Part shown: piece after piece, positions 11,074-16,416 of the stretch
How the letters are laid out: every line of letters starts with the position of its first letter
Position numbering within the stretch: the first letter of the stretch is position 1
Source: an uncultured archaeon
GTDB taxonomy: Archaea; Asgardarchaeota; Jordiarchaeia; Jordiarchaeales; Jordiarchaeaceae
Direction: 5' to 3'
DNA length: 26,662 nucleotides
NCBI GenBank assembly: GCA_964510585.1
Contig: CAZECW010000191.1
Location: 1 to 26,662 of the forward strand
Position numbers and translations under genes: made by a program
The notes under the pieces: model-generated
The model's database searches: none
What the model was told of the DNA's origin: nothing
Seen by the model: only the letters and a program-made list of their open reading frames with translations

Positions 11074-11340
11074 ATGTCTTTTCATAAATACAAAGTTAAG
11101 GTTTTAAGTGGTTACAGGATATCCATTCCACAAGAGGTCAGGTCAAGATTTAACGTTAAAGTTGGTGATGAACTAGACTTAGAAGTCAAGGGCGGAAGGC
11201 TAATCATCTCTCTTACGAAGGAGAGCCCCCTCATAATGCTTGCCAGTATAGCTGAGGAGGCCCCCTCAGACGTCGGTGGTGACGAACTCTTCCTCAAAGA
11301 GCTGAAGGGTAAGCTTGGTGGTTTAAGTGAGGTTCGTTGA
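11074..11340 (+). CDS. AbrB/MazE/SpoVT-family antitoxin (VapB-type)
   Basis: VLSGYRISIPQEVRSRFNVKVGDELDLEVKGGRLII motif. 14-nt overlap with the downstream PIN gene. Confidence 0.9.
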   Translation: MSFHKYKVKVLSGYRISIPQEVRSRFNVKVGDELDLEVKGGRLIISLTKESPLIMLASIAEEAPSDVGGDELFLKELKGKLGGLSEVR

Positions 11341-11800
11341 TGCTCCAGTCTTCATAAAGTGGATGTCTGCCTCTAGGAAAGGCTTGTCCTTGGAGGCAGC
11401 GATCAGCGGATACGTCCTCTACCGGATTGAGAACATGGAGCCAGCCGTCACAACAACGCTTGTTAAAGACGAGGTGTTAATCTGGCTCTCCCGCTACAGG
11501 GCTAGCGCACTTCCCACTTTCATTAAAGCCATCAGGTCTCTTTACTCCCTTGATATAATTGCGCCAACACTAGAAGATCAGGAGAACGCATGCAGCATGT
11601 ACGGGAAGCTTCCCATAGGTTTATCTGACATCATAAGCTTTACAGTAATGAAGCGTTTGAATATAACAGAAATATACACTCCAGATAAAGAGTTTGAGAA
11701 AAGCGGGGTTAAAACAGTTTTCTACGAGCTGGCGGAAAGAGAAGGGTTTAGAGAATTCACCGATTTCCTGAAAACCAAAAATTACAACCTTGCGTTCTAA
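11327..11800 (+). CDS. vapC: PIN-domain VapC-family toxin
   Basis: Four acidic catalytic positions in FVDAPVF, VKDEVL, LSDIIS and YTPDKEF. Overlaps the antitoxin gene; GGTGGT RBS at 11317-11322. Confidence 0.88.
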   Translation: MRFVDAPVFIKWMSASRKGLSLEAAISGYVLYRIENMEPAVTTTLVKDEVLIWLSRYRASALPTFIKAIRSLYSLDIIAPTLEDQENACSMYGKLPIGLSDIISFTVMKRLNITEIYTPDKEFEKSGVKTVFYELAEREGFREFTDFLKTKNYNLAF

Positions 11801-12666: not shown

Positions 12667-13335
12667 ATGGTTGATTTGTGGGTTGTGCTTCAATGGGTTT
12701 TGGTTGCAATTCTACTTTACTTGGTGCACTTTTTATTTATCGCTAAAGTTGTTAGGCACTACTTCCATTTTCCAATTCCCGGTTTTTTAACCCAGCTTAT
12801 CGATAACCCCATTCGAAGGAGAATTCAAAGGCCTGAGGTGCTGGCTGAGCGGATGAAGCTTAAGCCGGGAATGATTGTTGTGGAGGTAGGTCCCGGCAAA
12901 GGAAACTACACTAAGGCCGTAGCTGAGAAAATTCTGCCCGGAGGAAAAGTGTATGCAATTGATATTCAGGAATCCGTTATTGAACGCTTAAAGAAGAGAA
13001 TCGAAAAATGGGGAATCACAAATATTATCCCAAAAATTGATGACGCATATAACCTATCATTCGCCAACCAAAGTGTAGACAGAATCCTAGCCATTTGCAC
13101 ACTAGCAGAAATTCCAGAACCAGTTAAAGTACTGCGCGAATTCCACCGAGTCCTGAAGCCAGATGGCTTAGTGTGCCTTAGTGAAATGTTCCTAGATCCA
13201 GATTACCCAAGGAGAATCACAGAGAAGCGATGGGCTTCCGAAGCAGGTTTCGAACTTAGGGAGGAATTCGGAAACTTTTTCATATACCAACTGAACCTCG
13301 GAAAAAAATCAAAAATAAACCAAATAAATGTCTAG
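12667..13335 (+). CDS. Class I SAM-dependent methyltransferase with N-terminal membrane anchor
   Basis: Motif I VVEVGPGKG, acidic AIDIQ, SVDRIL, LREFHRVLKPDG. Hydrophobic N-terminal 25 aa. Confidence 0.9.
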   Translation: MVDLWVVLQWVLVAILLYLVHFLFIAKVVRHYFHFPIPGFLTQLIDNPIRRRIQRPEVLAERMKLKPGMIVVEVGPGKGNYTKAVAEKILPGGKVYAIDIQESVIERLKKRIEKWGITNIIPKIDDAYNLSFANQSVDRILAICTLAEIPEPVKVLREFHRVLKPDGLVCLSEMFLDPDYPRRITEKRWASEAGFELREEFGNFFIYQLNLGKKSKINQINV

Positions 13336-13462
13336 AAGAGTTAAATTGTTTAAGCGTCTTGAAAGATTACCTCTTTTTACTCTTCCGGGGTTGTTTAAAT
13401 CGACTGCTTCGGCTTCGCATCACTAAATCTCCGATGGAAAAATTTACAGTGAAGGATTTTCT

Positions 13463-13775
13463 TTATCTACATCGCTTTACTTGTTTAAGCCCTCCTGGGC
13501 AATCATGTCCAAAAAATCGGGCAGCTTTTTTCTCCATAGGTTAACGGCATATTTTCAATACAATGCTCATACATACAAACTCCATTTTGCTCCTCCCATT
13601 TTGGATTAGGTTCAAAGCAACGGGAATAGCCACATCTAGCATATAAACACCTTTCGCAATCTTCCCACATATCAGGACTGACGTTACCTGGACGCGTACA
13701 CTTGAAGATTCTCTCACCCTTCTTGACGCTCAACCCAAAAACCTTCAAATACTCTATATGGCCAAGCCATCCCAA
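13463..13775 (-). pseudogene. Cys-rich small protein interrupted by a +1 frameshift near its C-terminus (or a sequencing indel)
   Basis: The track ORF ends ...SCPIFWT* at 13503. Removing one base from the A6 run at 13511-13516 gives ...SCPIFGHDCPGGLKQVKRCR* (103 aa, 10 Cys, stop at 13463-13465). Confidence 0.6.
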
Positions 13776-13977
13776 ATTAACTCAACTATATGATATATTA
13801 GGTTAGGCACCAATGTTTCTTAGACTCATTTGGTTTTATTTATTAATATATTTTTGTGTATTGTTATTATTTTGTTTTCCTTAACGTCTTTTGTATAGAT
13901 AATGGTTTGGGTTGGGGCGAAAAACTCGTATTTTATTAGTTCTCAAGCTGAAAACTTTCACTATTTGGAAATTTTGG

Positions 13978-13992
13978 CAAAAAGTTTATATT
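13978..13992 (+). promoter_or_regulatory. BRE+TATA promoter candidate for reductase/activator operon
   Basis: CAAAAAG-TTTATATT about 70 nt upstream of ATG 14062. RBS GAGGT at 14050-14054. Confidence 0.6.
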
Positions 13993-14061
13993 AGATTTAA
14001 TTATAGCTGTTATCAACAATTCTAATAATAGGGCGCTACCAAATAGAAAGAGGTAATATTC

Positions 14062-15345
14062 ATGGAGACTGATTATAGAAAAATGTGGGAAGATTTGGGT
14101 ATAAATATGAAAAAACATGACCAACTTTTAGCAGCTCTACCATTAGTGTATCAGGACATATACCTAACCCAGAAGAATAGGCCCAAGGCTATGGAGTACT
14201 ACGACTTTGTAATCTCCGGGGTGCATGGAATAAGGGTAAAGGAACTTTTGGATGCCAAAGAGGACGGTAAAAAGGTTGTGGCATATTTCTGCCTCTATGT
14301 TCCTGAGGAGCTAGTCATCGCTTCCAATGCAGTGTTGGTGGGGCTTTGTGGCGGTTCGAATTTTGTAGACCAAGAGGCAGAGGAAGTTTTACCCAGAAAC
14401 ATTTGTCCCCTGATTAAGGCTTCCTATGGATTTAAGGCTGCTAGGATTTGTCCATACTTCCAAGCTGCCGACATTTGTGTTGGAGAAACAACATGCGATG
14501 GAAAAAAGAAGATGTACGAACTACTAAACGAACTTTGCCCCACTTATACGGTAGAGGTGCCCCAGAAACCAGACACAGAACAAGCCAGAGAACTCTTCTA
14601 CAAGGAGATTATGACCCTGAAATCCAAGCTGGAAGAACTCACGGGCCACAAAATAACTGTCCAAGATTTAAAGAAATCAATTGAAATTGTTAACGCAAAG
14701 AGAGAAGTTCTCGACAAGCTTATCAGCACAAGAAAAGCGGTTCCTCCACCAATAAGCGGTAAGGATTCCCTGCTTGTTTCTCAAATAGCCTTCTACGATG
14801 ATCCCCAAAGATTCACCCAGAAAACGGCGGAGCTGGTAGAAGAGCTTCAGGAAAGGATCAAGAATAAGGTGGGCGTAGTAGACGCAAATGCTCCAAGGAT
14901 AATGGTTTCAGGGTGTCCCATGGCAATTCCCAACTGGAAACTCCACAACATAGTTGAGAGTAGCGGAGCAGTCATAGTGGTGGAAGAGTCCTGTGTGGGA
15001 ACAAGATACACAAGTATGGGCAAAATAAATAATTCTGCCAACACAGTTGAAGGACTCGTGAAGGCGATCTCAGACGCCTATCTAAACATTCACTGCTCCT
15101 GCTTCACACCGAACACCGGAAGAATAGAAGATAATGTTAGGCTGGCAAAGGAGTTTAAGGTGGATGGAGTTATCCATTACACTCTGCAGACTTGCCATGG
15201 CTACAATATTGAAGCGGCCAAAGTAGAAAAAGCTCTTAAGGAAATCAACGTGCCAATGCTAAGGATAGAAACTGACTATAGCACTGAGGATGTGGGTCAG
15301 ATAACCACCAGAGTGGAAGCTTTTCTGGAGATGCTCAAAAAGTAA
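14062..15345 (+). CDS. Double-cubane-cluster-containing anaerobic reductase (DCCP-type member of the 2-hydroxyacyl-CoA dehydratase/HgdB superfamily)
   Basis: N-terminal W..L...KHD..L...QKNRP..M.Y.D.V...HGIRV.EL extension. Cys motifs FCLYVPEE, LCGG, ICPLIK, TTCDGKKK, ESCVG, HCSCFTPN, QTCHGY. C-terminal ETDYS.ED.GQI.TRVEAFLEM. Confidence 0.9.
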   Translation: METDYRKMWEDLGINMKKHDQLLAALPLVYQDIYLTQKNRPKAMEYYDFVISGVHGIRVKELLDAKEDGKKVVAYFCLYVPEELVIASNAVLVGLCGGSNFVDQEAEEVLPRNICPLIKASYGFKAARICPYFQAADICVGETTCDGKKKMYELLNELCPTYTVEVPQKPDTEQARELFYKEIMTLKSKLEELTGHKITVQDLKKSIEIVNAKREVLDKLISTRKAVPPPISGKDSLLVSQIAFYDDPQRFTQKTAELVEELQERIKNKVGVVDANAPRIMVSGCPMAIPNWKLHNIVESSGAVIVVEESCVGTRYTSMGKINNSANTVEGLVKAISDAYLNIHCSCFTPNTGRIEDNVRLAKEFKVDGVIHYTLQTCHGYNIEAAKVEKALKEINVPMLRIETDYSTEDVGQITTRVEAFLEMLKK

Positions 15346-15357
15346 AAATTTTTTCCA

Positions 15358-16173
15358 GTGATTGCAATGAGTGCTGTTGTTGTGGGCCTTGATATGGGCT
15401 CAGTTTCAACCAAAGCTGCAGTGCTTGAAGATTCTCGAATTGTGGGGTATGCAATACTCCCCACAGGATTCAGCCCTCAAGATTCAGGCAGAAGCGCAAT
15501 TATTGAGGCCTGCAGGAGGGCGGGAATCAGCCCAAAAGATGTTGTATACATTGTGGCCACTGGTTACGGCAGGATAAATGCTCCCTTTGCAAACTCTCGA
15601 GTAACAGAAATAACCTGTCACGGTAAGGGAGCCTTCTATATGAACAATTGTGCTCGCACCGTGATTGATGTGGGGGGACAGGACAGCAAGGTCATCTCAA
15701 TTAATGAGAAGGGCCGAGTTGTGGATTTTCAAATGAATGATAGGTGTGCTGCGGGAACTGGGAGGTTTCTTGAGGTTATGATGAAAACACTAGGCATGAA
15801 CTATGAGGAAATGTCTCATGCTGCAATTAACTCAGAAAACCCCTCAAAAATATCTAATATGTGCACTGTATTTGCAGAGTCTGAAGTAATAACTCTATTA
15901 GCGAAGGGTGAAAGCAGGGGAAACATCGCAGCGGGACTGTGCAACTCCATTGCTGAAAGAATAGCAACAATGGTCAAAAGGATAGGGTTGAAGGAAGAAG
16001 TAATAATGACGGGGGGAGTCGCAAAAAACAGGGGTGTAGTTAAACTTCTGGAAAATAAACTAAACACAAAAATACTGGTGCCCGAAGAGCCACAAATAAT
16101 AGGTGCGCTGGGAGCAGCCTTAGAAGCAAGAGAAGCTATACTCGAAATCAAGCAAAACCAATTCATTAATTGA
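15358..16173 (+). CDS. ASKHA-type ATP-dependent [4Fe-4S] activator (HgdC/BadFG, DCCP-reductase-like); likely start ATG 15367
   Basis: GLDMGSVSTK, ATGYGR, EITCHGKGA, IDVGGQDSK, NDRCAAGTGRFLE, CTVFAESEVI, GGVAKN, GALGAA. Starts 12 nt after the reductase stop. Confidence 0.95.
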   Translation: MIAMSAVVVGLDMGSVSTKAAVLEDSRIVGYAILPTGFSPQDSGRSAIIEACRRAGISPKDVVYIVATGYGRINAPFANSRVTEITCHGKGAFYMNNCARTVIDVGGQDSKVISINEKGRVVDFQMNDRCAAGTGRFLEVMMKTLGMNYEEMSHAAINSENPSKISNMCTVFAESEVITLLAKGESRGNIAAGLCNSIAERIATMVKRIGLKEEVIMTGGVAKNRGVVKLLENKLNTKILVPEEPQIIGALGAALEAREAILEIKQNQFIN

Positions 16174-16416
16174 CAGAAAACTTGCAGTACCTGCTCCACC
16201 GCACAACTTTACCCTTTTTTCAAAAAAATTAGTCGAAAAATAAAAAATTTTGAAATCAACAATGTAAAGTTGCAAAAACTCACAGAAACGCATAAAAAAA
16301 TTAAAAAAAGGAGTTATACAAGACGGCAGTAGTATCTAAAAAATAAATCTTACTTTCAAAATTATTATAGTAACTGGTGCATTTTTTATCGTATTGAGCT
16401 TTGGGAGTTTGTCAAA

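Follow-up and report, generated by a model that had tools for sequence, protein, structure and literature searches.

We found that the genes for a double-cubane cluster protein (DCCP) and for its ATPase, the DCCP reductase (DCCP-R), very probably constitute a two-gene operon of a class-I DCCP system in a hot-spring Asgard archaeon of the order Jordarchaeales. The two genes (Table 1) are located in a 26.6-kb stretch of DNA, hereafter the window, which is contig C191 of the source genome G000 (3.78 Mb; 96% complete). The reference system is the Carboxydothermus hydrogenoformans pair (CHY_0487/CHY_0488; PDB 6ENO, 7YYL, 7YZM, and 7YZQ), which belongs to class I of Jeoung, Martins and Dobbek (2020) and catalyzes the MgATP-dependent reduction of its double cubane and of acetylene, hydrazine, and azide (PMC7317905; PMC9351452). 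The DCCP family carries a nitrogenase-like, ATP-energised [8Fe-9S] catalyst, and it has been suggested that the benzoyl-CoA reductase/dehydratase family has its archetype here. As of 2025, its physiological role was still unknown in the literature.

The family membership of the first gene was established with NF040772, a curated NCBIfam equivalog model ('double-cubane-cluster-containing anaerobic reductase') that has a cut-off of 350 bits. The encoded protein matched this model at 488.8 bits (E 1e-146; profile positions 10–372 of 372), and a genome-level search of G000 with the same model returned it at 488.7 bits. The match to Pfam HGD-D (394 bits) also indicated a full-length family protein. 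Among solved structures, the best match was the C. hydrogenoformans DCCP (DCCP_Ch; 6ENO and 7YYL; E 2e-143), with residues 4–426 aligned end to end with residues 3–422, followed by BzdN (5e-26) and HadC (3e-16). An AlphaFold (AF2) model built on 12 Asgard homologues (predicted local distance difference test score 83.6; predicted template-modelling score 0.87) superimposed on 6ENO with a template-modelling (TM) score of 0.93–0.95 and a root-mean-square deviation of 2.0 Å over 421 columns; the corresponding TM scores were 0.78 for BzdN and 0.76 for HadC. An earlier note on this DNA, made from the letters of the window, had read the protein as a double-cubane-type reductase, and both the profile scores and the structural comparison place it with DCCP rather than with HgdA/HgdB or Bcr proteins.

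The cysteine set of DCCP_Ch is completely conserved. Nine of the 12 cysteines in the protein (C77, C96, C115, C130, C145, C311, C345, C347, and C378) have cysteine counterparts in DCCP_Ch and do not vary among the 12 aligned Asgard homologues; the other three (139, 159, and 285) are extra residues that DCCP_Ch lacks and that are not conserved. The seven-cysteine motif of the family (C77, C96, C115, C145, C311, C345, and C378) is complete. It contains the six predicted cubane ligands as well as C96, the counterpart of Cys94, which in DCCP_Ch is a non-ligand cysteine next to the cluster. The expected Cys motifs described in the earlier note, as well as the six ligands that it proposed to look for by alignment to DCCP_Ch, were thus recovered. 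Furthermore, N113 corresponds to N111 of DCCP_Ch, a residue at the docking surface that hydrogen-bonds the cluster ligand of DCCP-R, and is invariant across the same homologues.

In DCCP_Ch, approximately 70 N-terminal residues form four helices that close the coenzyme A (CoA) funnel and define class I (PMC7317905). The protein found here has this extension: residues 4–75 align without gaps with residues 3–74 of the 6ENO chain, and four helices (residues 3–11, 16–33, 42–53, and 59–67) are predicted in the model. As judged from alignment and model, the protein is a predicted class-I member of the DCCP_Ch type, which is consistent with the single-subunit HgdB-like gene with a long N-terminal extension recognized in the earlier note. 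The class II DCCP (short form) of Escherichia coli, YjiM, shares the two-gene logic (with YjiL) and the NCBIfam family, as E. coli scored over the cut-off in the control set. However, YjiM does not have the helices that close the channel, and it may take a larger substrate (PMC7317905), whereas the protein found here has them.

It is highly improbable that this gene encodes a component of a 2-hydroxyacyl-CoA dehydratase or of a benzoyl-CoA reductase of class I. These enzymes belong to the same superfamily (Pfam HGD-D), BzdN likewise carries an [8Fe-9S] cluster, and G000 has three ordinary two-subunit Hgd/Bzd-like sets elsewhere (contigs C90, C53, and C134), the products of which could in principle pair with DCCP. 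However, each of these sets has its own activator, and the protein found here has, in alignment, the extension by which the CoA funnel of DCCP_Ch is blocked. All of the dehydratase and reductase equivalog scores were far under their cut-offs (BzdN, 111.4 vs. 453.8 bits; HadC, 109 vs. 700; BcrC, 55.6 vs. 421; HadB, 39.3 vs. 750; BzdO, 27.1 vs. 448.6). Also, neither a second HGD-D gene nor a CoA-transferase gene was found in the window, in agreement with what the earlier note had stated.

The second gene begins 21 nt 3′ of DCCP on the same strand and encodes an archerase-type ASKHA ATPase (TIGR00241, 289.8 bits; PF01869, 222 bits). Its PDB matches include HadI (8e-66), MbdQ (3e-63), HgdC (4e-54), and the C. 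hydrogenoformans DCCP-R (DCCP-R_Ch; 1.9e-52). Consistent with the two Cys ligand motifs noticed previously in this ASKHA activator, C130 and C169 align with C115 and C152, the two [4Fe-4S] ligands in DCCP-R_Ch. The surrounding motifs (NDRC130AAGTG and NMC169TVFAESE) align to those of HadI, HgdC, MbdQ, and DCCP-R, and the nucleotide motifs GS.S.K and GGQD are kept. The coordinates of both open reading frames (ORFs) are as given in the earlier note except for the start of the activator. The longest ORF (15358–16173, plus strand; 271 aa) starts with GTG, but the start common to the three cassettes compared (G000, G056, and G076) is the ATG at 15367, and the upstream GTG is out of frame in G076. 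Among 80 loci examined for gene order in other genomes, an activator gene is located immediately 3′ of DCCP in approximately 60.

Several points weigh against the assignment of these two genes to a class-I DCCP system. The cluster content, ATP coupling, small-molecule specificity, and electron donor are attributed to this pair by homology at approximately 50–55% identity. The cysteine spacings (18, 18, 29, 165, 33, and 32) are off the published motif (CX19CX18-19CX29CX166-170CX32-34CX32C) by one or two residues, such that a literal regular expression of this motif found no match in the protein. At 182 bits, the activator does not match DCCP-R_Ch better than it matches HadI (225 bits), nor is it closer to DCCP-R_Ch than to the Hgd/Bcr-type activators of G000 itself (44–50% identity). 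For the spacings, we treated the printed values as approximate because they are not matched by the aligned chain of 6ENO either. For the activator, sequence closeness alone does not single out DCCP-R_Ch, and the gene was assigned to DCCP because of adjacency and because the identities of activator and DCCP to their relatives move together (92/95, 86/91, 63/64, and 53/55%). Compared to the C. hydrogenoformans pair, the host is an archaeon and the ATPase is 25 residues longer. The remaining comparison is one of likeness: a DCCP gene is followed by an ATPase gene, the DCCPs have 427 and 421 aa, respectively, and the ATPase keeps both cluster cysteines and its nucleotide motifs.

If the pair works as its reference does, a DCCP-R homodimer would hold one [4Fe-4S] cluster between its subunits, bound by C130 and C169 of each, and a low-potential donor, presumably ferredoxin, would reduce this cluster. 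DCCP-R with bound MgATP would then dock on the DCCP homodimer and, upon nucleotide hydrolysis and release, inject an 'energised' electron into the [8Fe-9S] double cubane. The double cubane would be located between the two Rossmann-like domains of DCCP and held by C77, C115, C145, C311, C345, and C378, with C96 adjacent. Since the four N-terminal helices would close the CoA funnel seen in dehydratases, we propose that only small molecules could reach the cluster, where they would be reduced below the potential of ordinary cellular donors.

An alternative is that DCCP is an electron-storage or relay module that hands ATP-energised electrons to a separate, unlinked acceptor, in the manner of the BzdN double cubane. 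In BzdNO(PQ) (PDB 8S02), BzdN has the HGD-D fold and carries an [8Fe-9S] cluster that is fed by an archerase-type ATPase module and serves electron transfer and storage, and an activator-less DCCP paralogue in G000 (see below) shows that DCCPs need not be encoded beside their partners. However, acetylene is reduced by DCCP_Ch on its own account, with CO and cyanide acting as inhibitors at or near the cluster, and no candidate acceptor is conserved beside the cassette in its three genomic contexts. We consider a pure relay function very unlikely, and catalysis at the double cubane remains the preferred reading. BzdN also differs from the DCCP found here in that it is heterodimeric with the catalytic BzdO and its double cubane acts as a relay; no BzdO-like gene adjoins the DCCP found here, which has only 94.6 bits of similarity to BzdN. 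As a side observation, one HGD-D subunit encoded by the set on contig C134 (G000:C134:6580-12031) scored 216 bits on the DCCP model and may be a BzdN-like double-cubane carrier.

Table 1. Features of the DCCP/DCCP-R locus, with positions given in the window.
Feature	Position	Strand	Remarks
Cassette segment, 3.1 kb	13311-16413	.	Small Cys-rich ORF, DCCP, and DCCP-R; missing at the same site of G038
Small Cys-rich ORF	13503-13775	-	Within the 3.1-kb segment
Putative promoter box, BRE/TATA-like, CAAAAAGTTTATATT	13979-13992	+	Upstream of DCCP; archaeal TATA consensus
Shine-Dalgarno-like GAGGT	14051-14055	+	6 nt upstream of the DCCP ATG
Class-I double-cubane cluster protein (DCCP), 427 aa	14062-15345	+	ATG start; NF040772, 6ENO alignment, AF2 model
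A5-G-TAA-A5-T6 tract	15337-15354	+	Spans the DCCP stop codon; kept in G000, G056, and G076
DCCP reductase (DCCP-R), archerase-type ASKHA ATPase, 268 aa	15367-16173	+	TIGR00241, PF01869, and PDB matches

The distribution of DCCP among Asgard archaea is patchy. In a sample of 301 genomes of the phylum, DCCP was found over the cut-off in 20. Within the order, it was found in seven of 11 genomes, and within the genus in three of six. The cassette is flanked by a methyltransferase gene (window positions up to 13310) and the LOR gene (window positions from 16414), which are separated by 3,103 bp in G000 but by only 113 bp in G038, a closed same-genus genome. The cassette of G056 is shared only from window position 13966 onward (86% identity) and has a different upstream flank. 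A further copy was found in the sister-family genome G076 (L029, G076:C4:2300-21300; 83% nucleotide and 91% protein identity), in which it replaces the DCCP type of that family in an otherwise unrelated context. In this 19-kb stretch of G076, only the cassette and one 1.6-kb patch resemble G000, and a simple mis-binning of the 91%-identical copy was judged unlikely on this account. These patterns suggest a transfer within the order or a chimeric contig, with transfer being more likely than simple mis-binning. Because of the absence at the G038 site, the patchy occurrence in the order, and the variable contexts in G056 and G076, DCCP/DCCP-R is an accessory and laterally mobile two-gene cassette.

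Relatives were collected by scanning one genome per species, which yielded at least 596 encoded relatives. These are mostly from anaerobic bacteria (Thermodesulfobacteriota, Chloroflexota, Bacillota, Nitrospirota, and Actinomycetota) at 50–57% identity. In a quick maximum-likelihood tree (100 rows; rooted on the HgdB-like proteins of G000), in which support was given by the Shimodaira-Hasegawa-like approximate likelihood ratio test (SH-aLRT) only, the Jordarchaeales sequences formed one clade that included both paralogues of G000 (SH-aLRT 97). A second Asgard clade (Promethearchaeota and Hermodarchaeota records; support 100) branched elsewhere among bacteria. We draw no conclusion on donors because the deep branches are weakly supported. 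One record in the second clade (L056; G296:C137) was deposited under the bacterial name 'Candidatus Deferrimicrobium sp.', although the genome is placed in the Asgard phylum; this record may be mislabelled.

It is barely credible that the two genes stem from bacterial contamination of the bin or that they are remnants in decay. Among the relatives listed above, the best matches outside of the order are bacterial, and the GC content of the cassette (43.5–44.3%) is a little above the usual 37–42% of the window. However, the flanks are syntenic with the closed same-genus genome, other products of the window (Rad50 with a zinc hook, HEAT-repeat proteins, and LURP-one-like proteins) fit an Asgard archaeon, the Jordarchaeales sequences form their own clade, and both ORFs are intact and 92–95% identical to same-genus orthologues. 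The synteny also supports the 'probable Asgard archaeon' of the earlier note, as does a contig from the sister family in the same order (L045; G017:C4) that was deposited as Candidatus Jordarchaeales archaeon. The DCCP and DCCP-R genes look functional, as their ORFs are intact, the promoter-like box and the ribosome-binding site are conserved, and identity to the same-genus orthologue reaches 95% at the protein level.

G000 has a second DCCP paralogue (L025, G000:C167:15786-17093, minus strand; 435 aa; 476.6 bits) that is 69% identical to the first and has all motif cysteines. It is located near a contig end, and no activator gene was found beside it. An orphan orthologue of this paralogue is also present in G056. 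Since the paralogue does not have an activator and the Hgd/Bzd-like sets have their own, the one DCCP-R gene probably serves two DCCPs. The presence of one DCCP-R ATPase gene with two DCCP paralogues also distinguishes G000 from the C. hydrogenoformans pair.

The signals around the two genes differ in how clearly they can be read. The box CAAAAAGTTTATAT, approximately 70 nt before the DCCP ATG, resembles a transcription factor B recognition element (BRE) with a TATA box. It is kept in the G056 and G076 cassettes while the flanking sequence diverges, and its putative promoter function rests on the archaeal TATA consensus. The ribosome-binding site of DCCP is kept as GAGGT or GGGGT in the three cassettes. 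For the activator, no Shine-Dalgarno motif was found before its ATG at 15367. The A/T tract across the DCCP stop codon is positioned 13–30 nt before this ATG and is non-coding, as G076 has a 23-nt insert inside it. This tract may act as a weak internal promoter of a leaderless transcript, may terminate or attenuate transcription as an oligo-T element, or may have no role; plain co-transcription fits equally. The activator's 'own TATA/BRE' claimed in the earlier note consists only of the A5T6 part of this tract (12–24 nt before the start), which is indistinguishable from an oligo-T terminator or from co-transcription, and the claim could not be confirmed.

Two other parts of the 3.1-kb segment were considered. 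The small Cys-rich ORF, a candidate for a third cassette gene that encodes a carrier protein, was found only in G000 and in one same-genus genome that is DCCP-negative. The ORF is therefore not part of the cassette, as its inheritance does not follow that of DCCP. Short repeats that match exactly in the upstream region and in the coding regions of DCCP and the activator had prompted the idea that this ORF is an inverted DCCP relic. This idea was rejected (BLASTP E 0.24), and these repeats were attributed to chance because BLASTP shows no similarity. In the spacer 3′ of the activator gene, we found an A-rich dispersed repeat of approximately 100 nt (window positions 16200–16310), with eight more copies in G000 (75–80% identity) and dozens in same-genus genomes. 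This repeat at the cassette edge may be a regulatory element or an element similar to miniature inverted-repeat transposable elements.

A link to selenium metabolism deserves separate attention, and a selenium species reduced for SelD is our leading guess for the natural substrate. In this possible but unlikely explanation, DCCP/DCCP-R would reduce selenium species (elemental, thiol-bound, or organoselenium) to selenide for the selenocysteine (Sec)-containing SelD of the host, or would need SelD for a Se-bridged cofactor. In previous work, 955 of 970 strong NF040772 proteins were found in SelD-containing assemblies (Haft and Gwadz, 2022/2023), and a 'hydroxyglutaryl-CoA dehydratase subunit' and an 'activase' were ranked among the highest-scoring partners that YedF and LysR_Se have (Table 1 of Lin et al., 2015). 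Consistent with these reports, among 76 bacterial DCCP loci we found SelD (361–369 bits) in 12 and YedF (120–217 bits) in 15 within 6 kb, with a union of 20. These genes are mostly located directly 3′ of DCCP-R, and the typical order is DCCP, DCCP-R, (DsrE-like), SelD, and YedF. Bacterial operons of this form were observed in L048 (6001–9679), L100 (5938–9767), L052, L053, L061, L082, L087, and others; in 13 loci, DCCP is adjoined by LysR.

In the second Asgard clade, DCCP has no adjacent activator and is located between two Sec-SelD paralogues, each with an in-frame TGA (TIGR00476, 155–197 bits). These loci often carry DsrE-like, LysR, and MoCF genes; examples are L035 (7617–11265), L040-L042, and G176:C49:18143-21723 (Promethearchaeota-type genomes, family f9). 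It was reported in 2024 that each of 51 Loki/Thor genomes carries at least two copies of selD, an observation left unexplained and with the gene between them unmentioned (PMC11227280). At the genome level, SelD was found in 18 of the 20 DCCP-positive Asgard genomes, with the two misses being 73% and 82% complete, compared to 20 of the 37 DCCP-negative genomes checked. G000 also has a Sec-type SelD, on contig C193.

However, no SelD, YedF, DsrE, TusA, or LysR gene was found in the window. In G000 as a whole, no YedF was found over the cut-off, only partial under-cut-off matches of TusA-domain length. The locus belongs to the same family as the selenium-linked ones (Lin et al., 2015; Haft and Gwadz, 2022/2023) and has a host with Sec-containing SelD, but its cassette has none of the SelD, YedF, DsrE/TusA, and LysR_Se genes that are found beside DCCP in 20 of the 76 bacterial loci and in the Lokiarchaeial-type Asgard loci. 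Almost every genome of the order has SelD (10 of 11), in contrast to the patchy DCCP, and SelD presence failed as a discriminator there. Three near-complete same-genus genomes have SelD and no DCCP; DCCP is therefore not needed for selenocysteine synthesis here. The co-occurrence could also reflect a shared strictly anaerobic lifestyle. The DCCP-SelD link holds at the genome level here, not at the locus level. It is doubtful, though conceivable, that the 'naked' cassette is an ATP-driven maker of selenide, or of SelD-usable Se, from poorly available Se, in which case it would supplement the selenocysteine system of Asgard archaea as an optional and laterally mobile extra.

The selD gene of G000 (G000:C193:53368-54288; L125 about 1500–2520) has features of its own. 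An in-frame TGA (selenocysteine) is present in the YG-U-SCK loop, and an insert of approximately 30 nt with a TAA and a hairpin (ATGTAAATCAT / ATGATTTACAT) splits the conserved NDVYA.GG motif between NDVY and A.GG. This pattern of one TGA and one TAA was found in eight genomes of the order. The insert resembles a mini-intron of the tRNA type (bulge-helix-bulge) and would be a further case of such an intron within a protein gene.

Screening of the ORFs in the window for neighbours and domain families revealed a PIN/MazE pair, PEMT/ICMT-like and S-adenosylmethionine (SAM) methyltransferases, LURP-one-like/Roadblock genes, SufBC, and Rad50 around the cassette. None of these genes recurs beside DCCP at the other loci examined. 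The MazE/AbrB-type antitoxin ORF (11074–11340) overlaps the PIN-domain ORF (11327–11800), and the two constitute a toxin-antitoxin pair of VapBC-like type, which is separated from the cassette site by its position two genes upstream.

This locus is an archaeal member of a known, curated, and widespread family, and no feature departs from the C. hydrogenoformans prototype. The novelty implied by the earlier note was overstated, as a curated NCBI equivalog model exists and the family is found in hundreds of genomes. The selenium lead, which is the most useful one, has already been published, and other loci illustrate it better than this one; if true, the selenide-making reading would explain why DCCP is located between two puzzling selD copies in Lokiarchaeial-type genomes. 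What the locus adds is an archaeal, thermophile-derived class-I pair that is open to expression and study. It also shows that Asgard archaea have the DCCP system as a mobile accessory cassette of two genes, and that one ATPase may serve two DCCPs.

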